A DNA stretch of 63,953 bases, counting the filler. It is 4 parts of 4 records of this genome, joined end to end, with 100 filler letters (N's around TTAATTAATTAA, not from the genome) between each part and the next. Parts side by side here need not be neighbours in the genome. Positions count along the whole stretch, not along the records: positions 12,967 to 32,159 come from SRR31156797_7287; 3 more parts are not named here. One strand, given 5' to 3'. The notes under the pieces are model-generated. The model was given only the letters and a program-made list of their open reading frames with translations, was not told the DNA's origin and did no database searches. Shown here piece by piece: positions 8,929-27,478 of the stretch; position 1 is the stretch's first letter; the number at the start of each line of letters is the position of its first letter. The position numbers were made by a program, and so were the translations under genes.

Positions 8929-9022
8929 TGATCTTGAAATGCCCAATATGGATAGATCTGAACTGACAAAAATAAAGGCAGATTTATTGGTATCGATGAT
9001 TACCAGATAAAAGGAGCGCAAA

Positions 9023-9913: not shown

Positions 9914-9923
9914 GAGAGCTTTT

Positions 9924-11825
9924 ATGTATATCAGGTTTAGCCATGCCAAATACTTAATAATAGTCCTATTACTGATAGTTTTGTTTCTTGTCGGTTTGAT
10001 CAGGGTGGGGACGCATAAAAAAATGAAGGTCCATCTGGCCAATTCCAAAACATCAATTGCCGAAGTGAATCTATCCGTCCAAATTATTAACTCTTTGACA
10101 ATGGCCCGTTTATCATTTGACGATATAATGCATGGGCATCTGGAGCAGATATCCGTCTTTGATAAAAATATAGAAGAGAGTCTCAGAATCGGTAATGAAT
10201 TATTTAACCTGATTCAAGATTTGTCGATGAAAAAGCAAGTGAAACATTATACATTAAACCTGACTCGTTTCCATAGGATCTGTCATCTTTATCACGAGGA
10301 AATGGTGTATGACCCTTCATCTGACACCTCAGACCAGCTATCCGTTGAAGCCCTTAAAATAAAACAACAAACTGTTAATGAAATGCTGGATTTTATTCAG
10401 ATAATTAACCAAAAAGCCATACAGGGGATGGTAGATGTTGAAACAATAATGAAATCAAATCAAAAACAACATACTTGGATTTTTTTTATTAGTGTGGCAA
10501 TTGGATGTTTATGCATCTACATTATTTCAGTGGCTATATCACGGCCTTTAAATCGGCTGATTCGAGTAATACGAAAATTTGGGGCCGGAGAAACAGGCAT
10601 TCAGATTGAGCTTCCAGATAAAGATATAATCGGACAGCTGGGCCATGAGTTCAACCAGATGGCGTTCAAGTTAAACGACGCGATCAGCTTGCAACATGGT
10701 ATTATGCATTCTTTACCATTCATGATGGTATGTGTGTCGCAGGATGGAAGGATCATTATGAACAATCAAATCATGTCTGATCAGCTCGGAGTCACAACAA
10801 ATGAGATAACAGGCAAAACATTATGGCAGATGTTGCCCGGGATAGCCAAAGAGAAAGAACGATTTATCGAAATGTTTGACCGCAATGATCAAATATTTTT
10901 GGATAAATATCCCTTGTACATCAACAATGAGCTTTTTCTTTGTGATATAACCATTTATCCCATAAAGTTAAGTCAAAATGACTTATCCGTTATTCTGATT
11001 CAGGATATGACTGCCAGTGTGAAAATGCAGGAAGTGCTTCACCAGGCTGAAAAAATGAAGTTTGTGGGTGGACTTGCTGCAGGTATGGCGCATGAATTAA
11101 ATAATCCTCTGGCAGGCATTGTTCAAAATACCCAATTAATTGAAAACAGACTTTTGAGCTCCCTGGCGGCTAATGACCGGGCCGCTGGCGAAGTCGGTAC
11201 AACATTGGAAGTCATCCGTCAATATTCCGAATCAAGGAAGATTCCAAGTATTATCGATAGAATTCTTGAAGCAGGCGCCAATGCGTCAAAGATCGTAAAC
11301 TCTTTGCTTTTTTTTGCGGGAAATAAACAATCCGGGGACATTGACATCGAGATTGAGCTTTTGATTGATAAAACCATTGAATTCTTAAAACATGATTATG
11401 GCCTTAAGAAATACGATTTTAAGAGTATCCGTATTAAAAAAAGCATTCCACCCAATATTCCACCTGTGAGGTGCAATGAAAGCAAGATGATACAGGCACT
11501 TCATAATATTTGTAAAAATGCGGCAGCAGCCATGCACGAATGGGATGATCCGAAAAAACAGGACCCGCAGATTGAGTTTATGATTTCTGCTGAAAAGACC
11601 TTTGTACAGTTGGAAATCAGGGATAACGGGCCAGGTATGGATAAGAAAATTCAAGAACGAATTTTTGAACCTTTTTTTACCACAAAGGATGTTGATAAGG
11701 GCAAGGGGCTTGGGTTGTCAATCGCCTATTACATTATAGTTGAAGATTTAAAAGGCCGGTTGATGGTTGAATCATCACCAGGAGACGGCGCAGCATTTAT
11801 CATCAGGATTCCATCCCGGGGCTGA
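9924..11825 (+). CDS. Membrane sensor histidine kinase (helical periplasmic domain, HAMP, PAS, HisKA, HATPase)
   Basis: Two TMs; AHELNNPL, DNGPG, FEPFFTTK, GKGLGL; GGAG overlapping the upstream TAG supports ATG 9924. Confidence 0.9.
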   Translation: MYIRFSHAKYLIIVLLLIVLFLVGLIRVGTHKKMKVHLANSKTSIAEVNLSVQIINSLTMARLSFDDIMHGHLEQISVFDKNIEESLRIGNELFNLIQDLSMKKQVKHYTLNLTRFHRICHLYHEEMVYDPSSDTSDQLSVEALKIKQQTVNEMLDFIQIINQKAIQGMVDVETIMKSNQKQHTWIFFISVAIGCLCIYIISVAISRPLNRLIRVIRKFGAGETGIQIELPDKDIIGQLGHEFNQMAFKLNDAISLQHGIMHSLPFMMVCVSQDGRIIMNNQIMSDQLGVTTNEITGKTLWQMLPGIAKEKERFIEMFDRNDQIFLDKYPLYINNELFLCDITIYPIKLSQNDLSVILIQDMTASVKMQEVLHQAEKMKFVGGLAAGMAHELNNPLAGIVQNTQLIENRLLSSLAANDRAAGEVGTTLEVIRQYSESRKIPSIIDRILEAGANASKIVNSLLFFAGNKQSGDIDIEIELLIDKTIEFLKHDYGLKKYDFKSIRIKKSIPPNIPPVRCNESKMIQALHNICKNAAAAMHEWDDPKKQDPQIEFMISAEKTFVQLEIRDNGPGMDKKIQERIFEPFFTTKDVDKGKGLGLSIAYYIIVEDLKGRLMVESSPGDGAAFIIRIPSRG

Positions 11826-11908
11826 TTTTGATTATCGAATAATGAATAAGGACCCCCCAACAGACCAAAATAATGGTCAGTGATGTTCTGATAGCCGTTT
11901 TTTAATTT

Positions 11909-12865
11909 TCAAAGCCCTAGTTTATCCATGTTAGTTTTTTCATACCTGCTGTCTTCTGCAGGATATCGCAGCGTATTTTTAAATTGGCCGGATTGTTTGG
12001 CCAAAGCCCAAATCAGACTTTCACCGGCTGGAATGTTGGCTGGTTCGATCTTATAAATTTCATCTGTGAATGCCTTATCCGCATCTGTTATTTCCCAACC
12101 CTTTTTTTTGAAATGTTGTATTAAGTCATCTAAGAAAAGAGCGGAAGTCAGATTATGATGCAGCAGCAACGTATGGCAAATTTTTCTGCCAGTGATTCTC
12201 AATGCCAAAGAATCATAATACAAAGCCCGGTCATAAAGATGCTTAATATAGAATTCCTTAAATCCGGAAATATCGGATTTCGGCTTTTCCTTTATTCGCT
12301 TGATCAATCTGCTGTTTATATACCAGTCTGACGCATCAACAGTGACATGCCCTGTTTTATAATTGTTTTGTTTAAGAAATTTTCTGAAACCGTCTCTTTT
12401 TTCAACCGTATTTCCCTCTTTCAGAAATGGATAGCGAAATAACTTGTAATAATTTGAATATGTGCTGATAACCGTGTCGTTTTTTTGAAACTCCTGTTTA
12501 AAGCTGTCCAGTGTTGTTTTTTCACTATTAAAACAGGGATGAGTAAACGTGTGGTTGGCTATTTTGTGTCCCGCATTATTCCAGGAAGATAAGACATATC
12601 TGCCCTTATCTCCCTGCAGACGGGAACCCGTCGCAAAAAATACAGCATTTATCTGATGTTTATTCAAGGCGTCAAGTATCCGCTGATTCCAATCTTTTAA
12701 TTTGTGAAGGGGCATATCTTTAGTGCTGCCATCATCAAATGTGAATGATATTATGGATTTGTCTTTTTTATTCTCCGCCGCCCGAGGTGCATCAGTCTGA
12801 CTAAACCCTGACAAAAAAATAAGACCAATCACAATAAAAGGGTGTTGAAATCGATAGTGATAAAT
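11909..12865 (-). CDS. Polysaccharide deacetylase (NodB/CE4), probably exported, likely 5'-truncated
   Basis: TFDDG, HTFTHP, FRYPF, LLLHH motifs; frame stays open to the contig end. Confidence 0.85.
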   Translation of the reverse strand: MYHYRFQHPFIVIGLIFLSGFSQTDAPRAAENKKDKSIISFTFDDGSTKDMPLHKLKDWNQRILDALNKHQINAVFFATGSRLQGDKGRYVLSSWNNAGHKIANHTFTHPCFNSEKTTLDSFKQEFQKNDTVISTYSNYYKLFRYPFLKEGNTVEKRDGFRKFLKQNNYKTGHVTVDASDWYINSRLIKRIKEKPKSDISGFKEFYIKHLYDRALYYDSLALRITGRKICHTLLLHHNLTSALFLDDLIQHFKKKGWEITDADKAFTDEIYKIEPANIPAGESLIWALAKQSGQFKNTLRYPAEDSRYEKTNMDKLGL

Positions 12866-12866
12866 T

Positions 12867-12966
12867 NNNNNNNNNNNNNNNNNNNNNNNNNNNNNNNNNN
12901 NNNNNNNNNNTTAATTAATTAANNNNNNNNNNNNNNNNNNNNNNNNNNNNNNNNNNNNNNNNNNNN
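12867..12966. other. Artificial contig-joining spacer
   Basis: N44-TTAATTAATTAA-N44 (stops in all six frames); gene style changes across it. Confidence 0.97.
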
Positions 12967-13734
12967 ACCCTGGACAATAAAGACAGAATTAAAGAACTGA
13001 TTTCCCAGCTTAACAGATTTTCACTCGAAATGATGGATGATCAGGAGCCTTGGGTAGGATACCGCTATTACATGGATTTTTATAGTGGCTCTGAGGAGAT
13101 TACTAGAATAACTATTCTGGGCAAGGACCTTGTTAATGTCGATGGTGTTTATTATGAGGTTGATAACTCATCCGTAGATATAGAAGCAATTGAGAGAATT
13201 ATTGGATCTTCGTCAAACTCGGAATTAGCTTCCGGTAATGAAGGTTTGAACATAGAAGTTTCAGGGGTATCAGAATCTCTAAGTATTGAAGAATTAAACT
13301 CTCAAGCAGATATCATTGTTACTGGAACTGTCACAGGTGTTTTTCCCTCTAGGTGGAATACACCTGATGGAAAAAGACCGAATAAATCAGATAGTGAACT
13401 GAACATAGGAACCGAAGACATGATTTACACCAGTGTTGTAATTCACGTAAATAGATACATTAAAAATGCACTGGACTGTCAGGACTTACAGATAACTGTT
13501 GAGGGAGGTATTGTGGGTGAAGATTCCATATGGGTTGAAGATAGTCCTTCATTTGAATACGTTGAAAATGTTCTTCTTTTCCTGAACTGGACTCCGGGGA
13601 GGAAGAGAATGACTGTTACTGGTGAATATCAGGGTAAATTCACAATGATAAACGATACAGCAGCAGTAAGGACTGATGGGGAGTCTGCGGTTATTGTTGA
13701 AGAGAATGGTGATTGGGTAGTAACAAGCATGTGA
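12967..13734 (+). CDS. Hypothetical acidic protein, probably extracellular, 5'-truncated
   Basis: Frame of the 13030 ORF is open back to the contig start (TLDNKDRIKELIS...); C-terminal domain LSIEEL..QADIIVTGTV...EGG...VLLFL. Confidence 0.7.
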   Translation, partial: TLDNKDRIKELISQLNRFSLEMMDDQEPWVGYRYYMDFYSGSEEITRITILGKDLVNVDGVYYEVDNSSVDIEAIERIIGSSSNSELASGNEGLNIEVSGVSESLSIEELNSQADIIVTGTVTGVFPSRWNTPDGKRPNKSDSELNIGTEDMIYTSVVIHVNRYIKNALDCQDLQITVEGGIVGEDSIWVEDSPSFEYVENVLLFLNWTPGRKRMTVTGEYQGKFTMINDTAAVRTDGESAVIVEENGDWVVTSM

Positions 13735-14142
13735 GAACTTTAAAAAACTTATTTTTTCTCCTATAATTTGGGCATTTTTCAGGCTCAATATTGAGGTTAA
13801 GTGTGCTTAATTTAGGCTTCTATAATCTTTGTTGAAACAATGTGCAATCTTCTAGTAGTTGTTTGTTGGTAGGGTGCTATCCATTTGTTTCAATTAACTG
13901 CTTCATATGATATGATGTTACTCAAATGAAAGTCCTCACTCTTAAAACAGTTAAGCAAAAGGCCATAATGTTTATATAAGCAACTAATAATTTTACATTC
14001 GCACATATGATATATGAAAGGAGTCCAATCTATTTTATAGAGTAGCCTTGGACTCCTTGATGCCCAGAGGCAATGGTATGTTGGTTTGATTCGGCTTAAA
14101 ACTTGCGTGTCTTTGTTTTTGGAATAATAAAAGAGGTATAAA

Positions 14143-15195
14143 ATGAAAACAAAACTACTTTTTGGATTGCTAGTAATAGCGTTCATGATAGGAATAGCAA
14201 GTGCAGACAATGGGATGGAAATTTCAAAGCTTTCTGATTACAGCCCTGAACAATTTCAAGAGCTTTTAAAATAACCGAATGTGATCGATATTAGAGGCTC
14301 AATGCCAGAGTTGATTTTTGAAAATGATAAGCAAAAATGGTTTGATAATATCAATAAATCTGGATCAGCCGTTTTCTCTTCGGGTGAATTGAAACCATAT
14401 ATGGAACAAAATGGCGGACCGATTATAATGACAGGTTACACATCTGATGGATGTTTGGTAGTTTCATTTAATGAAGAGTTAAAAGGAACATTTGATGAAA
14501 ACAAGTATATCAATGATATTTACAAGATATATGAAGATAAATCAAAAAAACTGGGTGTTAAAGACATTCCTATTGTATTTGAATATGAATCTATCCCAGT
14601 TGTACAGTCACGGACGTCCTATTGGAGGCCCTTAATAGGTGGAATCAAAATTGCTGTTGTGGGTTCATCAACTCTTGGATTTGCTGGAGAAAAGGTTCAC
14701 AATGGTGATAAGGGTTATATAATGACTGGACATTCCGGAGTACCCGGAAATACAGTAAAACAGCCAACAACATCTTCTGTGGGGACAATCATTGATGTAG
14801 AAGGAACTTATGCCGATGCTGCTTGGGTAAAATATAGTAATGTGGATGCAAAAGTATATCATACAAACGTTGATGTGACAAAAAGTGTGAAAGATTATGG
14901 CAATCCATCTGTGGACGATGACATCTTTATGTCTGGAAAAAGATCGGGGCTAGAAGATGGGGAGGCAGTTGCATATGTATACTCAATATCAAACCCCTAT
15001 CATGGGACACTTTATGGCCAGTGGAGGGCTAACTATGATTCGGATAATGGAGATAGTGGTGCTCCTGTGTATGAAACTGTCACCGGAGGTGTAAAGATCG
15101 TTGGTATTCATTGGGGCGCTTCAAACCTTTATGCATATTTCTCACCAGTTGGAGGTATTCAAGCAGATCTCGGTGTTGTGCCTTTAACGGAATAA
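14143..15195 (+). pseudogene. Secreted S1 (chymotrypsin/alpha-lytic-type) serine protease with one in-frame TAA at 14272-14274
   Basis: GAGG RBS and ATG 14143 give signal peptide MKTKLLFGLLVIAFMIGIASA, in frame with ORF 14281; triad His (TGH, 14731), Asp (DAAWV, 14815), Ser (GDSG, 15055). Confidence 0.85.
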
Positions 15196-15260
15196 AATAG
15201 ACAGTCCGTCTATTTTATTTTTTTATATTTTGGACAGGATTCAAAATAATTGCAAGGGAG

Positions 15261-16508
15261 ATGAATAGCATAATGTGTAAATTTAATAATTCCTTTCTAC
15301 TGACTTTAACCATCACATTTCTCGTATTTCTGTCACACGCTAGTGCTGATGGTGCCAATTCTGAAAATGAGACTGTAATCGAATTATTAATAGAAAACCT
15401 GTCTAATCAAAATCTATCGATAAAGTCAAGTTCTGCAAAAAACCTTGCTGAAATAGGGGAACCTACTGTAGTTCCTCTTATTCAGGCATTGGATAGTAAT
15501 AATTCAGAAATTAGGGAAAATTCGGCATATGTTCTTGGCCAAATAGGAGACGAACGAGCAGTAGATCCTCTGATTGAATTGTTGGGAGATGACTCTCAAA
15601 GAGTTCATAAAGCTGCGTCATCAGCACTTGAAAACATAGGTGAAGCCGCATTAGAATCACTCGTAAAAACAGTGAGTGAAGAAAACGAAAGTTCTCCCAG
15701 CCGATTAAATGCTATACGGATTCTTGGAACGATGGGTGAACCTGCAGTTGAGCCGTTGATTCAGGCGCTTGGAGGTATAGATGGTGTAACTGCAGCCTCT
15801 TCTTTGGGCAATATTGGTGAGCCAGCTGTATTACCACTGATTGATACTTTGGATAATGATGATCCATTGGTAAGAGCGTATGCTTCAAAAGCTCTCGGGA
15901 AAATAGGGGATAAAAGAGCTGTAGAACCAATAATCATGTTGCTTGAAGATAAAGATTCAAATGTCAGGGCAAATGCTGCTAAGGCTCTTGGTAATATAGG
16001 AGATGAAAGAGCAATTGAACCTCTTACAAAAACGCTTAGTGATAATGATGAAAGAGTAAGTGTTCTTGCAGAGTCAGCACTTGAAAAGATTGAAGCTAAT
16101 GATAATTCGGGCATAATTGCAACCTACGGAAAAAAAAGAGAATTTCTGATTGAGGATGAGTGGCAAAAATGGATTGATGAACTTGACAATATCGGAAATG
16201 GTGCGAGAAGTGACATGGAATCCTATATTAATCCCAATGGTCCTGTGACATCCTACGGGTATAATCGTGATGGTTATATTTCAGTCACTTTTTTGGAAGG
16301 CTCGGAGATTAATGAGTCTATGATGGATGAAATCTATAGTATATTTGTTGAACATGCTATAGAGGATGGAATTAGTGATGTTCCTGTGATTTTTCAATCT
16401 GAAGGTATGATTTCAGTAGATATCGAAGAAGATGAAGCAAATTTTCAAACTCCAGGTTTTACAGTCGCTGTTCTTATAATGATACTATTGATATATATCA
16501 AATTATGA
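15261..16508 (+). CDS. Surface HEAT (PBS-lyase-type) repeat protein with propeptide-like domain and PGF-CTERM anchor
   Basis: Signal peptide (ends HASA); repeated LG.IGD.RAVEPL/IGEPAV.PLI units; C-terminus TPGF plus hydrophobic helix and KL. Confidence 0.88.
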
Positions 16509-16772
16509 TAACTTTTAGCGTATAAATTGCGGAAAAGATAATGAAATAGTAGTAGGATATCATGAGAATACAAGTGTCAGTACGTGTTGACTCACATGTT
16601 CCTAATTGATAGCCTATTTAAACCTTATTTTTCTGTTTTCCCGTTTTTCAAAATCACCCTGCACCACTCCACATAACTTCAAACATCTTTGAAGTTTAAG
16701 CAAAGTATATACAGTCATACTCCCAAAGTCAGTATTAAGAAACACAATACTCTCAGTCAGGAGTGGTTAAAA

Positions 16773-19700
16773 GTGAACTTAACAGGGAAAAAAACAGGCA
16801 CTTTCATAGTTATTGTATCGTTGTTTGCAGTCATAATATCGGGTTGTATCGGGGATGATGGTGAGCTTTCATCCAATCTCGCCGGTCCTTGCAGTGGCCA
16901 GCTTTCTTCATCAGGAGACGAATTCCTGATACTTGCACCGAAGATGCTCTTTTCAGGCGGGGAGAGCTCAGTGACCATGGCAGCTTTTTCTGATAATGAG
17001 CCGGTGACTCGATGTGTGGAATATACTCTCACAGATGAGAACGACAATGAGATTGATCTTGTGCAGGCATCAACCTCTGAAGAAGGCAATGTTGTAGCTT
17101 CCTTTGAAGTACCAGATGTTGAAGAGGGAACCTATACTCTCACCGCAAAACCATCAGGGTATGAAACAGAATTCGAGGCAACGGTGGAAGTGGTAAAAAA
17201 CAATCCACTGTTTATCGAGACAGACAAGCCCATCTACAAGCCAGGTCAGACAATACACGGAAGAATTCTCTCCCTGAACAACAATCTTATTCCTGTTCAG
17301 GAAAACATCACCGCTGAGATAACAGATGCAAAAGGAATCAAAGTCTTCAAGGAGGAAATAAACTCCAACGAATATGGTGTTGCTTCCTTTGACCTGCCCC
17401 TGGCATCTGAACTGAACATGGGTACATGGAAGGTTGTTGCAACAGCAGGTGATTCAAGCACCAATGTAGATATTCAGGTTGACAAATATGTGCTTCCGAA
17501 GTTTGATGTTTCACTGGAAACACCGCAGGAATGGCTCCTTGTATCCGATGAGATAACAGGTACGGTGTCTGCCAATTACTTCTTTGGCAAGGAAGTTGAA
17601 GGTGATGTGCTTGTTGAAGCCTCACGCTACGTGGGAGAGTGGGAACAGTATGCAACTTTCTCCGGCGCACTTGAGAACGGTTCCATAGAGTTTGAACTCC
17701 CTGAAGTAGAATACGCAGCCGGTACATACGGAGCAGGCGGACAGGCAAGTCTCATGCTTAACGTTACTGTCACAGACACAGGTAACCACACTGAAAGCAC
17801 AAACAAGTTGCTTACTATTGCTGAATCACCAATTGTTCTCCAGCTAATTCCTGAATCAAGTACCATCAAGCCGGGAATGCCTCTACAGGTACTTGTTGTT
17901 ACAAAGGATCCCGGAGGCAATCCTGTTGATGCTGAAGTAACAGTAGACGCAAGGATAAGTGACGATTCTTATGATTCCACAAATGAAGAATTCACCTTGA
18001 ACACAGAGGGGGGTGTTGCCTTGCTTGAGCTGGAAATTCCGGCTAACAGCACAAATCTGTATATGGATGCTTATGTAGAGGGTGACAATGCATGGGCCAG
18101 TGAGTCACTGAATGCTGTATACTCTCCAAGTGCAAGTTTCATTCACATTTCCCAGACAAGCGATGGTGTGCCGGAACTTGGTGACACCATTTCCTTCCAT
18201 GTTTACTCCACAAATCCAGGTACGGTGTATTACGATGTCTTCGCAAACGGCAGGACGGTTTATTCTGCTACCAGTGATGAAAGTGACATAAGCATACCTG
18301 TAACTCCACAAATGAGTCCGCAGGCAAAGGTTGTTGCTTATATAATAAATCCCAACAGTGAAGTATCAGTGGACGTACTTCCATTCGATGTGGAATTCTC
18401 CACCCAGGTGGACCTGTCCAGTTCATTCAGCAGTGAGGGGGCAGAACCCGGGGATGATGTCGCAGTTGATTTTGACGCTGGAAGCCAGTCCATGATAGGT
18501 TTCTCCATCGTGGATGAATCTGTCTATGCACTTAGTGAGGGACGGCTTAATCTTAAGCAGGTATTCGATGAACTGGAGAAACGTTTCATGGAGCCTATGG
18601 CAGAATCCCATCCTTACTGGTATGAAGAAGGTGCATATGATGCACTGGAGAATGCCGGAATGGTAGTGATGGCCTCTCCGGGAATTGAGGTGCCACGTTC
18701 TGAATTGGCTGAATCAGGATTTAATGCTGGCAAATTTGCAGGTTTTGGTATGGAAGTTGATGCAGCTATGGATGACATGGTAGTCCTGGAAGGTGAGGAA
18801 ATGATGGAGATGCCTGCAATGGCCGCAGAACCTACTGATTCGGCAGATGAGGGCATGGGAGAGAGCGGCGAACTTGCAGAAGTGCAGCGTGTGCGTCAGT
18901 TCTTCCCTGAGACATGGGTATGGATGCCTGAGCTTCTCACTGATGAGGCAGGTCTTGTAAGTCTTGACCTGACAGCACCTGACAGTATCACTACATGGAG
19001 ACTGCACGCGGTCTCCTCCGGTCCGGAAGGTATCGGTATATCTGAATCCAGCCTGACGGTGTTTCAGGACTTCTTTGTTGACCCTGACCTGCCATACGCA
19101 GTTACAAGGGGTGAACAGTTCCCTGTACAGGTGCAGGTCTACAACTATCTAGATACAGAGCAGGATGTAAAACTGACACTATCAGGTGCTGAATGGTTTG
19201 ACATAATTGGTGACGATGTGCAGACCGTGACCGTGGATGGGAATGGTGTGGGATATGCTAGTTTCACAATAAGTCCAACCAAGGTTGGAAAGCAGCTTCT
19301 TGAGATAACCGGGCAGACAACTGAGAGGGCAGACGCTGTCAGGAAGGATATCATCGTGGAAGCAGAGGGAGCTACCCGTGAGCTTGTTGACAATGGTGTG
19401 CTCAGTAATGGTTCCGTGGAACTTGATACAAGTCTGCCAGCAGACATTGTTTCTGATTCGGACAAAGTACTTGTGAGCTTCACCCCGAGCATTGTGGCGC
19501 AGAGCATAAGTGGAGTAGACGACCTGCTTGGCATGCCTTATGGGTGTGGTGAACAGAACATGATGCTCTTCTCAACCGATGTTGAGGTATTGCGCTACCT
19601 GAAGGCAACAGGGCAGGATAATCCAGAAGTGCGGGCAAAAGCCGAGATGTATATTATCACAGGTTACCAGCGTGAATTGACCTACCGCCACAGCGATGGT

Positions 19701-21011
19701 TCATTCTCAGCATTCGGAGAGAGTGATGAGAGTGGTAGTCTCTGGCTTACTTCATTCGTGCTGTCCCAGTTCAGTGCTGCAAGGGATGTGACCACAATTG
19801 ATGAGAACATTCTCTCCGAGTCTGCGGATTGGATAGAATCCCATCAGCAGGAGGATGGTTCATGGGAGCAGGTCGGTTTTGTGATCCATCAGGACATGAT
19901 GGGCGGTGTCAGCGGCACCTACGCACTCACAGCATACACAACCCTTGCACTGGATGAATATGGTTCTGCAAGTCCTGTTGTCATGGCAAACGCACAGAAG
20001 TACCTTGAGGATAATCTTGCAGCCCAGGATGACCCATATGCTCTTGCCATCGGTACCCTTGCGCTGCAGAAACTCGACAGTTCCATGGCCGATGAGGCAC
20101 TGAACGACCTGCTTGCAATCTCAAAGCAGGATGATGACGGCACCTACTGGGGATATGGTGACGGTGCAGTTCCATTGCCGTACGAGGATGTTGGATACAG
20201 TTACATGGCACCATCCAGTAAGAACGTGGAGACAACAGCATATGCAACCCTTGCACTTATCGAAGCAAAGAATCCCACAGCCATCTCCTCCTTGAAGTGG
20301 ATATCCGCACAGCGCAATTCCAACGGAGGATTCTCCAGTACCCAGGATACTGTAATGGCATTCAGGGCACTGATGAGCGCGGCAGCATCTGCTGGCAGGG
20401 ATATCGATGCAACGGTACATGTAATCGCTGACGGAACTGAGATCAGGTCGGTGGATGTCAACCAGCAGAACTTCGATGTTGTCCAGATAATCGAGATCCC
20501 TGAAGGGACATCCAATGTCACTCTTGAGATGGATGGGACAGGAGACCTGAACTACCAGCTTGTAAGGCGCTTCAATGTGATCCTGCCGGATGTCATTGAG
20601 TACAATGAGATAGAACTGGATGTGGATTATGATTCCACCGACGTTGCTGTGAATGATATCGTCACTGTGAATGCCACGGTGAAGTACAACGGTATCCGGG
20701 GAATTGACGGCAGTGTCAGTTCCAGTGGAATGATGATAGTCGACCTTGCGGTGCCAACCGGTTTCAGTCCTGTATCCTCAAGTCTCGAGGCTGTGAAGGC
20801 AAACGAGGATAAGATTACCCGCTATGAGATCGCAGGCAGAAAGGTCATATTCTATATTGACGACATGCAGCCTGATGAGGTACTTGAGTTCAGCATGCAG
20901 GTGCAGGCTCTGTTCCCTGTGAAGGCTGTGGTGTCTGAGAGCAAGGCTTACTCGTACTACAACCCCGAGGTTGTGGCTGAGGTGAAGGGAATGGATGTTA
21001 CTGTGGTTTGA
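16773..21011 (+). CDS. Alpha-2-macroglobulin/thioester-containing protein (TEP), predicted lipoprotein
   Basis: GGAG-type RBS before GTG 16773; lipobox-like IISGC; FIETDKPIYKPGQ, YVLPKFDV, FFPETWVW, PDSITTW, PYGCGEQNM (thioester 19542-19556), DGSFSAFG, GGFSSTQDT, YSYYNPE. Confidence 0.95.
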   Translation: MNLTGKKTGTFIVIVSLFAVIISGCIGDDGELSSNLAGPCSGQLSSSGDEFLILAPKMLFSGGESSVTMAAFSDNEPVTRCVEYTLTDENDNEIDLVQASTSEEGNVVASFEVPDVEEGTYTLTAKPSGYETEFEATVEVVKNNPLFIETDKPIYKPGQTIHGRILSLNNNLIPVQENITAEITDAKGIKVFKEEINSNEYGVASFDLPLASELNMGTWKVVATAGDSSTNVDIQVDKYVLPKFDVSLETPQEWLLVSDEITGTVSANYFFGKEVEGDVLVEASRYVGEWEQYATFSGALENGSIEFELPEVEYAAGTYGAGGQASLMLNVTVTDTGNHTESTNKLLTIAESPIVLQLIPESSTIKPGMPLQVLVVTKDPGGNPVDAEVTVDARISDDSYDSTNEEFTLNTEGGVALLELEIPANSTNLYMDAYVEGDNAWASESLNAVYSPSASFIHISQTSDGVPELGDTISFHVYSTNPGTVYYDVFANGRTVYSATSDESDISIPVTPQMSPQAKVVAYIINPNSEVSVDVLPFDVEFSTQVDLSSSFSSEGAEPGDDVAVDFDAGSQSMIGFSIVDESVYALSEGRLNLKQVFDELEKRFMEPMAESHPYWYEEGAYDALENAGMVVMASPGIEVPRSELAESGFNAGKFAGFGMEVDAAMDDMVVLEGEEMMEMPAMAAEPTDSADEGMGESGELAEVQRVRQFFPETWVWMPELLTDEAGLVSLDLTAPDSITTWRLHAVSSGPEGIGISESSLTVFQDFFVDPDLPYAVTRGEQFPVQVQVYNYLDTEQDVKLTLSGAEWFDIIGDDVQTVTVDGNGVGYASFTISPTKVGKQLLEITGQTTERADAVRKDIIVEAEGATRELVDNGVLSNGSVELDTSLPADIVSDSDKVLVSFTPSIVAQSISGVDDLLGMPYGCGEQNMMLFSTDVEVLRYLKATGQDNPEVRAKAEMYIITGYQRELTYRHSDGSFSAFGESDESGSLWLTSFVLSQFSAARDVTTIDENILSESADWIESHQQEDGSWEQVGFVIHQDMMGGVSGTYALTAYTTLALDEYGSASPVVMANAQKYLEDNLAAQDDPYALAIGTLALQKLDSSMADEALNDLLAISKQDDDGTYWGYGDGAVPLPYEDVGYSYMAPSSKNVETTAYATLALIEAKNPTAISSLKWISAQRNSNGGFSSTQDTVMAFRALMSAAASAGRDIDATVHVIADGTEIRSVDVNQQNFDVVQIIEIPEGTSNVTLEMDGTGDLNYQLVRRFNVILPDVIEYNEIELDVDYDSTDVAVNDIVTVNATVKYNGIRGIDGSVSSSGMMIVDLAVPTGFSPVSSSLEAVKANEDKITRYEIAGRKVIFYIDDMQPDEVLEFSMQVQALFPVKAVVSESKAYSYYNPEVVAEVKGMDVTVV

Positions 21012-21111: not shown

Positions 21112-21708
21112 ATGGACTTCAGACTAATTTTCATTATGGGATTTGCAGGTTTTGTTGTTACAGTTATCCTGCTGGCAATTGTTGCTACAATTCTTAATGA
21201 GAAACGCAGAGCAAAAAACCTTGCAGAACAGGCACGAGAAATAGGATTTAATCCAGCTTCAAAGGATCTTGTCACATCACTTGATTTTAAGCAGACTCGG
21301 CTTGGTAACAAACAAAAAGTGTACAATGTTTTCACAGGTACTTTTGATGGTGTTCAGGTAATCTTTTTTGACCTGACAATAGTTATTGGAAATTTGATAA
21401 CCGGTTCTACAACATCTCACGGAGGTACTTTCAAGTCATCAGTTATCGTCTTCAAAGTACACGCTCCCATTTTTGAATCACAGCCTCGCTCTCCTCTTAC
21501 TAAAAATGCTTATAACGAATACTTCTCCCTGAAAGGAGATGCTTCTTTTATGACTGAATCACTGGCCGAGAAAATTGAACGAAAATATGCAATTGAGTCC
21601 AATGGGACTCATGTATTGTTTGTCCCTTCCGGGAAACGTGTTGGAAACATCAGTGATAAAGTAAAGGCTGCTTACGGGATATTGCAGGAAATAGTTCAGA
21701 AACATTAA
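21112..21708 (+). CDS. Hypothetical protein with N-terminal membrane anchor
   Basis: 198-aa ORF with hydrophobic N-terminal helix and AAGGA upstream. Confidence 0.7.
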   Translation: MDFRLIFIMGFAGFVVTVILLAIVATILNEKRRAKNLAEQAREIGFNPASKDLVTSLDFKQTRLGNKQKVYNVFTGTFDGVQVIFFDLTIVIGNLITGSTTSHGGTFKSSVIVFKVHAPIFESQPRSPLTKNAYNEYFSLKGDASFMTESLAEKIERKYAIESNGTHVLFVPSGKRVGNISDKVKAAYGILQEIVQKH

Positions 21709-21758: not shown

Positions 21759-22142
21759 ATGAACAAATATCTGAAAATGTTCTTTTACGGACTTGTTCTG
21801 TGGCTGGTGCCTTTTGTAGTCAGCTTTGCCTTTGTGGACAGTCAGGGCAATTTCATCATAGCTGAGACATTCTTCAAATCCATCATGGTTGTTACCGGTG
21901 CTCTTATTGGTGTTATCCTTGCAGTGAGGTATTTCAGGGATGTAGAAACGGACTATGTCAATGAAGGCATACTTCTTGGACTTATCTGGCTTGTCATGAA
22001 CCTTGCGCTGGACCTGGTAATGGTATCAGGTGGATTCTTCCAGATGTCGGTTGTGCAGTACTTCACAGACATCGGAATGCGCTATCTTGCAATGCCGATC
22101 TATACTGTAGGTATGGGCTATGTATTGATGCAGAAGGGATAA
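21759..22142 (+). CDS. Small integral membrane protein (about 4 TM)
   Basis: 127-aa hydrophobic ORF with AGGGG RBS. Confidence 0.75.
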   Translation: MNKYLKMFFYGLVLWLVPFVVSFAFVDSQGNFIIAETFFKSIMVVTGALIGVILAVRYFRDVETDYVNEGILLGLIWLVMNLALDLVMVSGGFFQMSVVQYFTDIGMRYLAMPIYTVGMGYVLMQKG

Positions 22143-22940: not shown

Positions 22941-23429
22941 TTAACCGTTATCCGCTTCCACTCTTGTTAATACACTCAGTGTTACAGCATTCTCTTCTGC
23001 TATCGCACCTTCGATGCGATCTACCAGAAGTCGGAATGCACCGTCCTTATCAAGTTTGGAATAATCTCCAATTCTATGAACAAAAAGTTGCTTTTGGGTT
23101 TCCAGGTATTGTTCTGTTGAACGGTAGTTCTTCCACTGTTCTCTATAATGGTATATCCCTTCCAAGGCAATAGCTAGGGCCACTGCAACACCGATGAAAG
23201 TAACTGAGGACCTTGCAAGGTCCATTTCCCAGTCTCCGATCGGTACAATTACAGAAACATTGTTGATCACAGGAATCAGCACTGCACCTACTGCAGCTAT
23301 TACCTGTGCTTGCTGATATCTCTTTTTCATTTTAACAGATTTGCTGTCGTACCATGATCTGTATTGTTCAAGCCTGTTTTTGATGTATTGTTCCTCAGTA
23401 TTTTGAACCTCGGTTATTTCATCAGCCAT
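22941..23429 (-). CDS. DUF4231 / SLATT-type two-TM protein
   Basis: YI..RL.QY.SWYD.KS...KK.Y, two TM helices, W.NYRST.Q.L..QK.LF...G.Y; true start MADEITE at 23429 because the longer ORF overlaps mutS. Confidence 0.8.
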   Translation of the reverse strand: MADEITEVQNTEEQYIKNRLEQYRSWYDSKSVKMKKRYQQAQVIAAVGAVLIPVINNVSVIVPIGDWEMDLARSSVTFIGVAVALAIALEGIYHYREQWKNYRSTEQYLETQKQLFVHRIGDYSKLDKDGAFRLLVDRIEGAIAEENAVTLSVLTRVEADNG

Positions 23430-23542
23430 CAATAGAATTTTGGATTGGAAGTACTTAAATAATACGTTAGACGAATCGATGATTTTGTCACATTGGGAAA
23501 TGATATTTATCTCTGATATTTTTCTTGATAGTTTCCTTCCCG

Positions 23543-23577
23543 ATGCAAACACAAAAATACTAACAAGCCGATAATTT
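23543..23577 (+). repeat. Direct repeat copy 1, upstream of mutS
   Basis: ATGCAAACACAAAAATACTAACAAGC (26 bp) identical to 27554-27579; 33/35 identity when extended. Confidence 0.9.
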
Positions 23578-23603
23578 GCAGCATCAATTCTGTGTGATCC
23601 ATC

Positions 23604-26252
23604 ATGAGTAAAGTAACCCCTGCCATGCAACAGTTTTATGCTGCCAAGGAAGAGCATAAGGATGCCCTCATATTCTTCAGGATGGGGGATTTCTATGAGT
23701 CCTTTGGAGAAGATGCAAAGACCATAGCAAAAGAACTTGAGATCACCCTGACGACCCGCGGCAAAGGAAAGGATGGAGAGAAGATGCCGCTTGCAGGTAT
23801 CCCGTATCATGCTATCGATAACTATCTCCCGCGTCTCATCAAGAAGGGCTACAAGGTTGCCATATGTGAGCAGCTCGAGGACCCAAAGAAGGCAAAAGGT
23901 GTCGTGAAGCGTGGTGTTGTAAGGGTTGTGACTCCGGGTACTGCAATGGATTCATCCATGTTCTCAGACTCATCTAATAATTACCTCATGGCATTGTATG
24001 GTGAGAAGGATGAATATGGCCTGTCGTTTTTGGATATCTCTACCGGTGAGTTCCTGACAACACAGTTTAAGGATACTACTCCCTATGACCGTATCGCCAG
24101 TGAGGTTGCACGTATGGGTCCTTCCGAATGCATTCTGCCTCCTTCTTTGTTCAATGACCTGCGCCTTACTGAGCGTCTGAAGGAACTCAGGCTAATCATT
24201 CACGAGTTCGATGAAGATGCTTTTGATCTGGAACTGGCTGAGAAAATCCTTCTGGAGCACTTTAATGTATCTACCCTTGAAGGTATGGGTTGCAGTGAAC
24301 TAATGGTTGCTGTCTCATCTGCAGGTGCAGCATTGCGTTATGCAACAGAGACTCAGATGAGGGAACTCTCTCAGGTACAGAACCTGAAGACATACTTCGA
24401 TTCCGAGTTCATGGTGCTGGATGCTATCACCCTGAGAAACCTTGAGATCGTCAGAAATGTGAGGGGTGAAGGAAACGATTCTTCTCTTATCGGTGTGCTT
24501 GATGAGACAAAGACGCCCATGGGGAGGAGACAATTACAGAAATGGCTCCTGAAACCTCTGGTATCCGTTGATGCCATCAATGCTCGTCTCGATTCAGTTG
24601 CATGGCTTCATGATAACACTCTCATACGTTTTGATATCCGTGCTCATCTTTCATATGTAAAAGATATGGAGAGGCTTGTTGGAAGGGTAATGTATGGAAA
24701 TTCTAATGCAAGGGATCTTGTATCGTTGAAGAAATCACTTGAATCAGTTCCACTCTTGCTCGGATCTCTTCGGGAATGTGGGAATGTTGATCTGCTGGAG
24801 GGCCTCGTATCAAAATTATCCTCTTTCGGGGAACTCGATGAGCTTTCAAAGCTTATCGACAGTGCCATAGTGGAAGAACCTCCTCTTAGTGTCCGGGATG
24901 GAGGAATGATCAAAACTGGATATAATGCGCAACTGGATGAATTCTTTGATCTGTCAAAAAATGGAAAACAATGGATCGCCAAGTTCCAGCAAAAAGAGCG
25001 TGACAGGACCGGGATAAAGTCTTTGAAGGTCGGTTATAACAAGGTTTTTGGTTATTATCTTGAGGTCACAAAGGCAAACATATCACAGGTTCCTGATGAC
25101 TATATCAGGAAGCAGACCATGACAAATGCCGAAAGGTTCTATACTCCTGAACTTAAAGAACGTGAGAGTGCTATCCTTTCCGCAGATGAGAAAATGGTGG
25201 CTCTTGAACATGAGCTGCTCAGTGAGCTAAATTCGATTGTAGCCTCCCATTCCAGACAGCTTCAGGAAACTGCCGTTCTTATTGGAACACTGGATGTTCT
25301 GACAAACCTTGCAGAGGTAGCTGCCAATAACAATTATGTACGACCGGCAGTAACTCCTGATTGCAGACTTCTCCTCAGAGATGGACGACACCCCGTAGTT
25401 GAGGATGCTGTCCCCGGTGGCTTTGTGCCCAATGATACGGAGATGGATTGTAGTGAGAATCAATTCCAGCTTATAACCGGGCCCAACATGGCTGGTAAAT
25501 CCACATACATGAGGCAGATTGCTATGATAGTTATAATGGCGCAGGCAGGTTCCTTTGTACCTGCATCCCATGCATCTATTGGTATTGTGGACCGGGTGTT
25601 CACAAGGGTCGGCGCATTTGATGATCTTGCAAGCGGCCAGAGTACTTTCATGGTGGAAATGGTGGAGCTTGCCAATATCCTGAACAATGCCACACCAAAG
25701 AGTCTGGTGTTGCTGGATGAGATTGGCAGGGGTACCAGTACCTATGATGGTTACAGTATTGCGAAAGCTGTGGTTGAATACATCCACAACAAGAGGCGTG
25801 TGGGCGTCAGGTCTCTTTTCGCCACGCACTATCATCAACTCACCGATATCGCAGCCAATCTCAAGCGTGTGAGGAACTATCATATCGCTGTTAAGGAGGA
25901 TGGGGATGACCTTGTATTCCTGCGTAAGATCGTTCCCGGTGCAACGGACAGGAGCTATGGTATCCATGTTGCCAGAATCGCGGGTGTCCCGCACACGGTC
26001 ACTTCAAGGGCAAAGGAGATCCTTGAGGATATCGAGAGCGAGTGCATGATAAGTGGGGAAGACCGCAAGGGGAGTAAGAAACAGCGCAGCAGCGCCAATT
26101 ATACTCAGGTCATATTGTTCGACCAGGATGCAACTTATAGTGAGGTAGTTCCTGACCCTGTGATAGAAGAACTGAAAGAACTGGATATCAATTCAATGAC
26201 CCCTATCGAGGCGCTGAACAAGCTGAATGATATCAAAAGTAAACTCAAATAG
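23604..26252 (+). CDS. mutS: DNA mismatch repair protein MutS (MutS1)
   Basis: TPAMQQF, FRMGDFYE, GPNMAGKS, STFMVEM, DEIGRGT, FATHYH, SYGIHVA. Confidence 0.98.
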   Translation: MSKVTPAMQQFYAAKEEHKDALIFFRMGDFYESFGEDAKTIAKELEITLTTRGKGKDGEKMPLAGIPYHAIDNYLPRLIKKGYKVAICEQLEDPKKAKGVVKRGVVRVVTPGTAMDSSMFSDSSNNYLMALYGEKDEYGLSFLDISTGEFLTTQFKDTTPYDRIASEVARMGPSECILPPSLFNDLRLTERLKELRLIIHEFDEDAFDLELAEKILLEHFNVSTLEGMGCSELMVAVSSAGAALRYATETQMRELSQVQNLKTYFDSEFMVLDAITLRNLEIVRNVRGEGNDSSLIGVLDETKTPMGRRQLQKWLLKPLVSVDAINARLDSVAWLHDNTLIRFDIRAHLSYVKDMERLVGRVMYGNSNARDLVSLKKSLESVPLLLGSLRECGNVDLLEGLVSKLSSFGELDELSKLIDSAIVEEPPLSVRDGGMIKTGYNAQLDEFFDLSKNGKQWIAKFQQKERDRTGIKSLKVGYNKVFGYYLEVTKANISQVPDDYIRKQTMTNAERFYTPELKERESAILSADEKMVALEHELLSELNSIVASHSRQLQETAVLIGTLDVLTNLAEVAANNNYVRPAVTPDCRLLLRDGRHPVVEDAVPGGFVPNDTEMDCSENQFQLITGPNMAGKSTYMRQIAMIVIMAQAGSFVPASHASIGIVDRVFTRVGAFDDLASGQSTFMVEMVELANILNNATPKSLVLLDEIGRGTSTYDGYSIAKAVVEYIHNKRRVGVRSLFATHYHQLTDIAANLKRVRNYHIAVKEDGDDLVFLRKIVPGATDRSYGIHVARIAGVPHTVTSRAKEILEDIESECMISGEDRKGSKKQRSSANYTQVILFDQDATYSEVVPDPVIEELKELDINSMTPIEALNKLNDIKSKLK

Positions 26253-26287: not shown

Positions 26288-27478
26288 TCATTGCAGGTCC
26301 CCGGAACCAATGCCTTTTCTCTGTAATATTGTCCATGCGGTCAGCACAAGAGCACCGCAGACAAATGTGATGGTTCCCAGTATCTGCATACGTTCCATCC
26401 ATTCAAGTGATACCAGCCACATTCCAACAGCCCCAAGGGTGAAATATGTGAATATCAGCAGGGATGACGCGGCACCTGCATCCTTATGCACCTGTTCGAG
26501 TACGAGGTGATTGCTGGGAGGTCTGCTGATGCCTATGGAAAACGTTACAATTGCCATTGGTATTGCAAAGCTCCAGGGTCCGTTCTGGCCTATCAAAAGA
26601 ATGGCTGCTGCTCCAAGTGTTATTCCTGCAAAACCGGCGGTCATCAGATGGTTGGAGTTCATCCTGTCCGTCAGTTTCAGGCATGACATGGACCCTGCCA
26701 TAAGTGCAAGGGCGTTGAAGGCGAAGAAGTAGCTGAAACCCTGTTCTGTCATTCCGAATCCGTTGATGTAAAGTGCCGAGGAACTGGCAATGAAGCTGTA
26801 CAGGGGTAGCAGGCTTACGGACATCACAAGAACCATTATCACATAGTTCTTGTTAAGTAGAAGCTCAGCATAGGAATTCATGACCTTTGACATTGGGACG
26901 TCCGATTTTTCCTTTAGTGTCTCAGGTGTCCTGACCACTCCCAGAAGTCCTATAAGTCCCATCGCTCCCTGCGCAATGAAGATCCAGGGCCATGTTATAT
27001 ATGCCAGTATCCATCCGCCGACAATAGGTGCGAACATAGGTGCAAGTGCCATGATCACGGCTATATATGCAAGGATTCTCTGTCTTTCTTTCCCGGCGAA
27101 TATATCCTTTGTCATGGTCATGGAAAGGGATGCGCTGGCAGCAGCCCCGGCAGCCTGTATTATTCGGAATACTATAAGTGCGGTCACATTGCTGGCGGTT
27201 GCACAGAGTATGCTGGCAAGTATGTAGAGTATGATGCCTGCGATCAACGGTTTTTTGCGTCCGTATCTGTCCGATACCGGTCCGTAAAAAAGTAATGAGA
27301 ATCCATATGTGACGAAGAAACTGATCAGTATAAGGTTGACAACTGCCAGTGGCCTGTCCCATAGAATAGCAAGGGATGGTATGGCAGGCAGTATCATGTC
27401 CGTGGAAAATGCAGGGAATGCTGTTAAAAGGGCTAACAAGGGTACGATATTCTTTATTTTTCCAGAACCTGACATCAT
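26288..27478 (-). CDS. MFS multidrug transporter (Bcr/CflA family)
   Basis: TDMILPAIP, GPVSDRYGRK motif A, APIVGG; about 12 hydrophobic segments. Confidence 0.9.
   Translation of the reverse strand: MMSGSGKIKNIVPLLALLTAFPAFSTDMILPAIPSLAILWDRPLAVVNLILISFFVTYGFSLLFYGPVSDRYGRKKPLIAGIILYILASILCATASNVTALIVFRIIQAAGAAASASLSMTMTKDIFAGKERQRILAYIAVIMALAPMFAPIVGGWILAYITWPWIFIAQGAMGLIGLLGVVRTPETLKEKSDVPMSKVMNSYAELLLNKNYVIMVLVMSVSLLPLYSFIASSSALYINGFGMTEQGFSYFFAFNALALMAGSMSCLKLTDRMNSNHLMTAGFAGITLGAAAILLIGQNGPWSFAIPMAIVTFSIGISRPPSNHLVLEQVHKDAGAASSLLIFTYFTLGAVGMWLVSLEWMERMQILGTITFVCGALVLTAWTILQRKGIGSGDLQ

Follow-up and report, generated by a model that had tools for sequence, protein, structure and literature searches.

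A Methanolobus thioester protein of the alpha-2-macroglobulin family belongs to a CD109-like archaeal and bacterial class with a catalytic-type histidine

Methanolobus encodes a thioester protein of the alpha-2-macroglobulin (A2M)/TEP family that belongs to a large archaeal and bacterial class with a catalytic His, much more CD109-like than ECAM-like. The gene lies at positions 16,773–21,011 (plus strand, as are all features below unless stated) of the window, the whole 63,953-nucleotide stretch of DNA analyzed here, and specifies 1412 residues (~152.5 kDa, calculated pI 4.05). Judged by homology, the product is reasonably likely to be an extracellular, probably lipid-anchored, monomeric alpha-macroglobulin-type protease trap of this prokaryote-wide GCGEQNM-plus-His class. 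Recent reviews present prokaryotic A2Ms as ECAM-like and Gram-negative, and date A2M to 600–700 million years (PMC12939704, PMC13069473). The window gene itself is a typical representative of the archaeal and bacterial A2M-family class, of a kind already annotated.

ORF calling and translation gave a frame open from a GTG at 16,773 to a stop at 21,011, with a Shine–Dalgarno-like GGAGTGG ~8 nt upstream of the start; orthologues begin at the same position. The protein is 90% identical to the ‘alpha-2-macroglobulin family protein [Methanolobus sp. WCC4]’, and a PDB sequence search matched it full-length to human A2M (E 1.8e-126). Ten Pfam families were listed at E ≤ 0.01, and seven that define the architecture all exceeded their family cut-offs. 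MG2 (3.4e-23), MG3 (3.3e-14), MG4 (7.4e-06), and the bait-region domain A2M_BRD (1.5e-23) occupy residues 146–587 (17,208–18,533). The A2M (MG7) domain (residues 714–803; 18,912–19,181; PF00207, 2e-28) lies directly 3′ of FPETW, followed by the thioester domain (TED; residues 907–1201; 19,491–20,375; TED_complement, PF07678, 8.2e-78) and a C-terminal MG8/receptor-binding-type domain (residues 1317–1401; 20,721–20,975; A2M_recep, 1e-15). This is the A2M/TEP superfamily architecture of an MG ring with an inserted BRD, MG7, a CUB with an inserted TED, and MG8/RBD, and it bears out the sequence-only reading of the gene as an A2M/CD109/TEP-type thioester protein. Translation also located TDKPIYKPGQ (17,220–17,249), VLPKF (17,490–17,504), FPETW (18,903–18,917), and GGFSSTQDT (20,325–20,351) where that reading had placed them. 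Given the E-values for TED_complement and human A2M, this set of motifs and domains is no chance resemblance. The chain ends in ...EVKGMDVTVV right after A2M_recep, without a hydrophobic tail, and contains 4 Cys versus 8–18 in the animal and eukaryote-like rows (42 in a 2264-aa Danionella row).

The thioester motif GCGEQNM (residues 924–930, including Cys925 and Gln928) is found at 19,542–19,562, with CGEQ intact and all seven residues invariant in a 12-row TED alignment. His1039 (19,887–19,889), within VIHQDMMGG (19,881–19,907), stands 114 residues past Cys925 and is invariant in the same alignment (column H133); the coordinates and spacing first noted for both were confirmed by translation. 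In phmmer alignments, His1039 falls on the His of C4-B (VIHRSMQGG), CD109 (VIHSELQGG), A2ML1 (LLHTAMKGG), and TEP1, and the C4-B residue at this column is one that we take to be the catalytic isotypic residue. The protein is of the His type seen in C3, C4-B, and A2ML1, in having a His at the C4-B column ~100–115 residues past the Cys. The proposal of a C3-like catalytic His holds at residue level for C4-B, CD109, A2ML1, and TEP1; for human C3, which ranked below the five residue-level alignments, the correspondence is given by the aligned range 1109–1153 together with C4-B. A 20-aa query around His1039 returned no match.

Structural comparison points to the same relatives. An AF2 model of the TED (pLDDT 78.6, pTM 0.82) was matched best by CD109 in Foldseek (TMq 0.83–0.86, 36–37% identity), and then by A2ML1, human A2M, TEP1, C4, and C3. 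In a whole-chain fold search with a 1200-residue model, the best match was native human CD109 (8s3o; E 2.2e-74, TMq 0.58, ~24% identity) and the second was A2ML1, with A2M, TEP1, and C5 among further matches; ECAM ranked 45 and 49 and Salmonella A2M 46 and 48, at 13–14% identity. By BLASTP, Trichoplax CD109 matched the window protein over its full length (E 5e-147), whereas ECAM gave only local matches (best E 1e-9, 22% identity), in keeping with the contrast first drawn with the CLEQ motif of E. coli-type A2M.

ECAM/YfhM and Salmonella A2M are prokaryotic like the archaeal protein, and the N-terminal lipoprotein anchor of ECAM (...LALAGC) resembles the archaeal I-S-G-C, a likeness by pattern match only. 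The ECAM type is described as a bait-and-thioester snap-trap protease inhibitor with two extra N-terminal domains, MG0/NIE (PMC9156758, PMC12939704). In ECAM (1653 aa), the motif reads GCLEQTA and the His column is gapped; its gene adjoins pbpC. In contrast, the 1412-aa archaeal protein lacks the CLEQ motif and the two extra domains, its alignment to animal proteins begins near the N-terminus, and no pbpC or PBP gene was found near the window gene or in the loci compared.

CD109 (8s3o native, 9fx3 active) shares with the archaeal protein the domain order, the lack of extra N-terminal domains, and a GCGEQ-type thioester with His at the same column. CD109 is described as a lipid-anchored monomeric cell-surface inhibitor in which bait cleavage leads to thioester conjugation (PMC12927315). 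Its anchor is a C-terminal GPI on MG8, shed after cleavage, whereas in the archaeal protein a lipobox lies at the N-terminus and, unlike in the CD109-like rows of Trichoplax and Ptychodera, no C-terminal GPI-anchor signal is present. A2ML1 (7q1y, 7q5z) also has the His at the aligned column; it works by acyl-imidazole chemistry, accepts amines and hydroxyls, and requires covalent conjugation for inhibition (PMC9156758). A2ML1 is monomeric, secreted, glycosylated, disulphide-rich, and without a membrane anchor, which sets it apart from the archaeal protein, which is cysteine-poor and has a predicted lipid anchor. The complement and TEP proteins C3, C4-B, and TEP1 share the TED fold (30–34% TED identity) and a GCGEQNM-type thioester with the aligned His, C3 by range as above. 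However, C3 and C4-B have a convertase site where the archaeal protein has a putative bait region, and the features of C3, C4, and C5, namely ANATO replacing the bait and C345C/NTR at the C-terminus, are missing: neither family was among the ten listed for the window protein, and no downstream complement-like partners accompany it.

At the N-terminus, a putative signal peptide ends in a lipobox-like I-S-G-C (residues 22–25, Cys25; 16,773–16,847), a pattern match that predicts an N-terminal lipid anchor and fits the lipobox pattern quoted in PMC12462473. Lipobox-like motifs occur within the first 60 aa of 78 of 111 full-length rows of Methanosarcinales orthologues, and the window protein is probably surface-anchored in this way. 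Between BRD and MG7 lies the putative bait region (residues ~640–700; 18,690–18,872), which is acidic and Met-rich (16 D+E and 8 Met in 61 aa). Across 53 orthologues, 30-aa windows spanning residues 641–700 show 27–38% identity and indels, against a mean of 77%, and the corresponding AF2 fragment (model residues 434–486, protein 646–698) has pLDDT < 50. No other part of the protein is so poorly conserved or so disordered, as would be expected of an exposed, flexible, and fast-evolving alpha-macroglobulin bait.

A surface-anchored covalent protease trap is favored because the conserved lipobox and the hypervariable, disordered bait coincide with native CD109 as the best fold match. In such a mechanism, a foreign or stray protease would cut the exposed bait, whereupon the MG ring, CUB, TED, and MG8 would rearrange and unmask the Cys925–Gln928 thioester. 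[quoted passage not shown] The protease would thereby be fixed to the cell surface by a covalent bond and hindered sterically, so that S-layer and membrane proteins would be protected. This mode would be conjugation-dependent, as in the monomeric inhibitors A2ML1, CD109, and ECAM, with the His broadening the range of acceptors rather than redirecting the protein to an opsonin role.

The gene neighborhood, singled out as noteworthy in the sequence-only reading, proved uninformative about function. Only the downstream genes mutS (23,604–26,252) and mutL (27,643–29,664), both identified by Pfam and separated by a minus-strand MFS transporter gene (26,288–27,478), are conserved. Of 21 Methanolobus loci, 16 have mutS beside the A2M gene, as do 8 of the 18 loci from other archaea, and the synteny with mutS and mutL is kept across Methanolobus and Methanococcoides; these genes show that the A2M gene keeps a stable place in the chromosome and are not its functional partners. 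The upstream side varies between loci. No conserved partner gene, cognate protease, convertase-like, LRR-partner, or receptor gene was found beside the A2M gene, and the lack of a conserved adjacent cognate protease weighs against a trap. An upstream S1-like protease ORF was considered as the cognate target and rejected, this ORF not being conserved. The ORFs at 13,030–13,734, 14,281–15,195, 21,112–21,708, and 21,759–22,142 had no Pfam match even at E ≤ 1, and neither mobile-element flanks nor near-identical copies from bacteria or animals were seen within ±8 kb in 56 loci.

An alternative role is complement- or TEP-like tagging, in which the activated thioester deposits the protein on targets rich in hydroxyls, for example glycans, the surfaces of foreign cells or viruses, or partner cells, thereby marking or immobilizing them instead of inhibiting a protease. 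The position of His1039 in the catalytic-His column would suit it, and the His had been taken as a hint of an opsonin, but it is no such pointer because the protease inhibitors A2ML1 and CD109, both conjugation-dependent, carry the same His (PMC9156758, PMC12927315). To our knowledge, Archaea possess no phagocytic or lytic downstream machinery into which a tag could feed. The best structural matches are inhibitors, the ANATO and NTR/C345C families and the convertase-like, LRR-partner, or receptor neighbors are missing as described, and the predicted lipid anchor would hold the molecule on its own cell. We therefore regard tagging as unlikely, even if insect TEP1, which matches the archaeal protein in architecture and His, is considered an opsonin (PMC5489563, PMC9156758) and Makarova et al. 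raise, as speculation, immune or conflict roles of the A2M homologues in archaea (PMC8416519). Insect TEPs as a group are regarded in PMC9156758 as complement-like and not inhibitory, so that architecture alone cannot separate a trap from a tagging role. The product might instead attach itself, and with it its cell, covalently to that cell's S-layer glycans, extracellular matrix, or syntrophic partners, with bait cleavage serving as an environmental trigger. Such adhesion would fit a predicted surface-anchored thioester protein with homologues in consortium-forming ANME-2 archaea; however, the gene also occurs in free-living methylotrophic methanogens, hypervariability of the bait is what typifies a decoy that senses proteases, and adhesion has neither supporting context nor precedent within the A2M family, which makes it decidedly improbable.

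The gene could also be a recent import from an animal or bacterium, a horizontally acquired passenger without a settled function. It is patchily distributed, being present in 58 of the 151 genomes sampled from the host's family (reached via related loci, with protein P0001 as the query), mostly in single copy and at 66–90% identity, and Makarova et al. state that the M. psychrophilus homologue came ‘most likely’ from bacteria by HGT (PMC8416519). Nevertheless, the GC content (48.4%) and GC3 (47.5%) of the gene match those of neighboring mutS and of the window, the mutS/mutL synteny is retained, and the frame is intact apart from one internal TAA among the matches listed in those genomes. The archaeal orthologues form a supported clade (98/98), which holds the window protein and lies beside bacterial clades, and a clade uniting archaeal and animal sequences was rejected (p-AU 0.00013). 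A recent import is accordingly very improbable; any transfer dates far back, and the archaea have kept the gene ever since.

The GCGEQNM/His class extends well beyond Methanolobus. Of the relatives examined, all 11 from archaea and all 10 named ones from bacteria carry the His, and all six motifs occur in 10/10 named archaeal and 9–10/10 named bacterial rows (Planctomycetota, Nitrospirota, Hydrogenedentota, Chloroflexota, Actinomycetota, and Acidobacteriota), which makes the earlier label ‘animal-type’ a misnomer. The bacterial GCGEQNM/His homologues share 41–49% identity with the archaeal protein over nearly its full length, together with the same motifs. They differ at the termini: nine readable loci from Planctomycetota, Nitrospirota, and Hydrogenedentota have no lipobox-like motif, seven of these, with a clear N-terminus, have an ordinary signal-peptide-like start, and some homologues carry C-terminal extensions (up to ~1900 aa in total). 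PF07678 was discarded as a class marker, as it also exceeded its cut-off in the E. coli, B. subtilis, Caulobacter vibrioides, and Thermotoga maritima controls. As the sequence-only reading had anticipated, archaeal annotations already existed: many Methanosarcinales genomes carry orthologues under the label of A2M family protein, and a close one is discussed in PMC8416519, whose supplementary TED alignment and archaeal homologue tables may already show the His.

Trees were built from alignments of C-terminal regions of 670–1550 residues rather than full-length rows and without C3, C4, or C5 sequences; the very long ECAM outgroup branch (4.33) was left out of later trees. The window protein and bacterial GCGEQNM/His homologues share a 46-row clade (support 100/100), and in a 62-row tree the ten rows from eukaryotes, of which 8 are named animals and 2 are unnamed, group within the GCGEQNM/His class (100/100), the window clade being separate from the animal clade. 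A sister position of the eukaryotic rows was not rejected by the AU test (p 0.058–0.108). The phylogeny thus addresses the suggestion that the gene bears on TEP origins, in that the AU rejection of an archaeal and animal clade leaves the window clade without specific kinship to animals.

A tentative reading, to which we give less than even weight, is that the His-assisted, hydroxyl-reactive thioester machinery of TEPs, CD109, A2M, and complement is of prokaryotic origin and reached animals by bacterial transfer. If so, the archaeal protein would be one member of a CD109-like class found across prokaryotes and characterized by GCGEQNM plus His, eight MG domains, and the lack of MG0/NIE, and the animal family would lie inside this class or as its sister, with the nearest prokaryotic rows of Actinomycetota/Chloroflexota type. 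Budd et al. 2004 reportedly proposed transfer from animal to bacterium; that direction would then be reversed, and animals would have received a ready-made His-type TEP. In the literature searched, no paper was found that describes a His-type A2M class from prokaryotes or an A2M class from Planctomycetes. For the window gene itself, the significance is small, its orthologues being annotated in many Methanosarcinales and one being in print. However, an archaeal or bacterial member of this class would provide a cysteine-poor, glycan-free model for His-type thioester chemistry, and it would help settle whether the family passed from prokaryotes to animals or the other way.

Translation of 16773-21011 on the plus strand gives an open frame of 1412 residues, whose GTG start at 16773 is preceded by the Shine-Dalgarno-like GGAGTGG and occupies the same position as in the orthologues. 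Every motif listed in the sequence-only reading was recovered on this strand: the thioester motif GCGEQNM at 19542-19562 (Cys925), VIHQDMMGG at 19881-19907, whose His1039 (19887-19889) lies 114 residues beyond Cys925, TDKPIYKPGQ at 17220-17249, VLPKF at 17490-17504, FPETW at 18903-18917, and GGFSSTQDT at 20325-20351. Pfam assigned MG2, MG3, MG4, A2M_BRD, A2M, TED_complement (E 8.2e-78), and A2M_recep to the product, while the anaphylatoxin and NTR/C345C families were not among the 10 Pfam families found at E <= 0.01. The observation is real, and chance is ruled out.

The gene adds one more member to a kind that is known and carries annotations already, as the same reading had suspected. A protein search yielded 2356 matches among 7997 scored candidates, and the relatives were ranked from the best 120. 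Among these, the closest are entries named "alpha-2-macroglobulin family protein" from Methanolobus species (73-90% identity), followed by proteins of Methanomethylovorans, Methanococcoides, ANME-2, Candidatus Methanogaster, Altiarchaeota, and Micrarchaeota. Moreover, a scan of genome contigs retrieved 56 loci, the closest being that of Methanolobus profundi (90%). According to a preprint, archaea contain A2M family proteins, and Makarova et al. 2021 (PMC8416519) name the M. psychrophilus homologue, placing it close to bacterial A2M homologues and considering acquisition from bacteria probable.

The same scan revealed named bacterial relatives with 41-49% identity across nearly the full length, distributed among Planctomycetota, Nitrospirota, Hydrogenedentota, Chloroflexota, and Actinomycetota, which carry both GCGEQNM and xxHx[DE][ML]xGG. 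The motifs had been described as animal-type; this label does not hold, as each of the six is found in every named archaeal row (10/10) and in 9-10 of the 10 named bacterial rows. One contig, CALNZC010000051.1, labeled as an uncultured Saprospiraceae bacterium, bears an A2M gene at 58-74% identity, split over several frames, with mutS and mutL behind it in the order of Methanosarcinaceae (47-80% identity). The contig appears to be archaeal and to have ended up in a bacterial MAG through binning, and it was therefore excluded from the bacterial relatives.

For phylogenetic analysis, 63 rows were selected out of approximately 290 proteins and loci, omitting most fragments and near-duplicates. 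They comprised the window protein, 10 archaeal (9 named), 10 named bacterial, and 8 named animal rows, 17 unnamed representatives, 6 rows of the GCGEQS class, 10 of the 97 of the GCFEQT class, and E. coli YfhM (ECAM), with no C3, C4, or C5. The region from MG7 to the C-terminus was used, keeping 700-702 columns. The main tree was inferred with IQ-TREE (LG+C20+F+G4 PMSF) without ECAM and with an assumed root on the GCFEQT class; support is given as UFBoot/SH-aLRT. The window protein groups with Methanolobus psychrophilus, Methanococcoides, and Methanomethylovorans (4 rows, 100/100), and with ANME-2, Methanogaster, and Altiarchaeota in an archaeal clade of 10 rows (98/98). The whole GCGEQNM clade contains 46 rows (100/100). 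Within it, the eight named animal rows and two unnamed ones, which are Cys-rich with hydrophobic C-termini, form a eukaryotic group of 10 (100/100), itself part of a 19-row clade with Actinomycetota and Chloroflexota (100/100). At its base, the GCGEQNM clade shows no resolved order among this 19-row clade, the archaeal clade of the window protein, Planctomycetota/Nitrospirota/Hydrogenedentota, Acidobacteriota, Micrarchaeota, and Undinarchaeales. Two quick trees gave the same picture.

This phylogeny with animal, bacterial, and archaeal homologues had been proposed as a check, and it rejects a grouping of the archaeal proteins with those of animals: constraining the 10 archaeal and 10 eukaryotic rows to a single group cost 127 lnL (p-AU 0.00013, LG+G4). 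Forcing the 36 prokaryotic GCGEQNM rows together without the eukaryotes was not rejected (AU p 0.108 with LG+G4; 0.058 with PMSF), the groups in both tests having been defined after sight of a tree. The window protein is firmly placed within a prokaryotic class, of which it is an ordinary representative with no special closeness to animals, and the animal rows are either nested inside the prokaryotic GCGEQNM class or sister to it.

The claim of a C3-like catalytic histidine fared differently in its two parts. The structural part stands, because a 50-residue query around His1039 places it, residue by residue, on the His of complement C4-B (VIHRSMQGG), CD109 (VIHSELQGG), A2ML1 (LLHTAMKGG), and TEP1 (VWHKDMQGG); the correspondence with C3 is by aligned range only (query 6-46 against C3 residues 1109-1153). 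The C4-B residue is the isotypic catalytic one. However, this His is no speciality of C3 but the state that prevails across the family. The 63-row L-INS-i alignment has it in all 11 archaeal rows including the window protein, all 10 named bacterial rows, 16/17 unnamed rows of the same clade, 5 of the 8 named animal rows, and 5/10 GCFEQT-class rows. It occurs in 0/6 GCGEQS-class rows, the GCGEQS[ML/T] class having Tyr or Trp at this column, and ECAM has a gap there.

The model of the thioester domain (pLDDT 78.6, pTM 0.82) has CD109 as its closest match (TMq 0.83-0.86, 36-37% identity), followed by A2ML1, human A2M, TEP1, C4, and C3. A 1200-residue model (pLDDT 78.8, pTM 0.56) retrieved native CD109 first (E 2.2e-74) and A2ML1 second, with ECAM and Salmonella A2M at ranks 45-49. 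In BLASTP, the window protein aligns with Trichoplax CD109 over the whole length (E 5e-147, 29% identity), whereas ECAM gives local matches only (best E 1e-9, 22% identity) and does not appear among the top 60 of the 74 PDB sequence matches. On these sequence comparisons, the description "closely related to bacterial A2M (Garcia-Ferrer 2015)" is wrong for ECAM itself but correct insofar as the nearest non-archaeal relatives are bacterial.

The N-terminus carries a putative signal peptide ending in I-S-G-C, which matches the lipobox pattern quoted in the abstract of PMC12462473. A similar motif is present in 78/111 full-length rows and is lacking in the nine readable Planctomycetota, Nitrospirota, and Hydrogenedentota loci. 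Residues ~640-700 form an acidic segment rich in Met (16 D+E and 8 Met among 61 residues) that behaves like a bait region, since it is the least conserved stretch among 53 orthologues (27-38% identity vs a 77% mean), bears indels, and is modeled as disordered (residues 646-698, pLDDT under 50). Residues ~381-450 (17913-18122, MG4 region) also fall to 44-49% identity in 30-residue windows against the 77% mean, but, in contrast to the bait, with good model confidence.

The most economical reading is that the protein is probably a surface-tethered, bait-triggered covalent protease trap, each functional step being proposed for the archaeal members by inference. Cleavage of the bait would trigger covalent trapping of the protease at the cell surface, and His1039 may widen the range of acceptor groups for the thioester. 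According to the accessible text of PMC9156758, A2ML1 carries the same His, forms an acyl-imidazole reactive toward amines and hydroxyls, and inhibits solely via covalent conjugation; CD109 is described in that of PMC12927315 as a lipid-anchored monomeric inhibitor with a working mode like that of A2ML1. The opsonin-like tagging first envisaged for this protein is retained as an unlikely reading by analogy with TEP1, whose same architecture is able to tag; the locus offers no context in its favor.

Regarding its genomic residence, the A2M gene (GC 48.4%, GC3 47.5%) resembles mutS (46.5% and 47.8%) and the window as a whole (GC 47.9%). The mutS and mutL genes lie 3' of it in 16/21 Methanolobus loci and 8/18 other archaeal loci, and of 151 genomes sampled from the family to which M. 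profundi belongs, 58 contain a match at E <= 1e-20 (66-90% identity, mostly one copy, with an internal TAA in one match). Given this composition, synteny, and distribution, any inter-domain transfer must be old, with the gene retained ever afterward. No partner gene, pbpC-like or otherwise, is conserved near it in the 56 loci.

The upstream stretch at ~10-17 kb has a lower GC (34-41% per kb vs 45-51% in the A2M gene), and the upstream ORFs (7090-16508) accompany the A2M gene in only 0-7/56 loci; on these grounds, ~10000-16700 has the appearance of an island that is variable or acquired. A HEAT-repeat ORF in the low-GC stretch (15261-16508) has a GC3 of 24.5%. Located 1.6 kb 5' of the A2M gene, a 304-residue ORF (14281-15195, plus strand) with an NGDSGAPVY motif has weak PDB sequence matches to alpha-lytic protease (3m7u_A, E 0.0083, query 118-262) and streptogrisins, no Pfam match even at E <= 1, and no counterpart within ±8 kb of the gene in any of the 56 related loci. 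This ORF may encode a divergent serine protease of S1E-like type, extended at its N-terminus by ~115 residues. Directly 3' of the A2M gene, two small predicted membrane proteins (21112-21708 and 21759-22142, plus strand) have no Pfam family and recur in 7/56 and 11/56 loci, respectively, mostly of Methanolobus. On the minus strand, a predicted ORF (22941-23810) overlapping the start of mutS contains DUF4231 (1.3e-20) and SLATT_1 (6.5e-07), SLATT being named as a SMODS/SLOG-associated 2TM effector domain.

An exhaustive representative search returned 12952 clusters at E <= 1e-3. By first motif-pattern match, 97 of 149 newly listed representatives have GCFEQTS/GCFEQTT and 33 have GCGEQNM. The GCFEQT[ST] class (representatives P0149-P0270) is a large prokaryotic A2M class of 1400-2080 residues, and the GCGEQS class is smaller; members of both derive from metagenome contigs, and some of them bear the name "YfaS (alpha-2-macroglobulin family)". 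In the literature searched, no description was found of the GCFEQT[ST] class, the GCGEQS[ML/T] class, or a prokaryotic class that resembles CD109 and bears the catalytic His; of bacterial homologues, the available text of two 2026 reviews mentions only the ECAM type (PMC13069473, PMC12939704). Not specific to the window and, with its placement, short of significance on these data, the more interesting by-product of this analysis is a CD109-like prokaryotic class, endowed with the catalytic His, that would stand next to or around the animal family.
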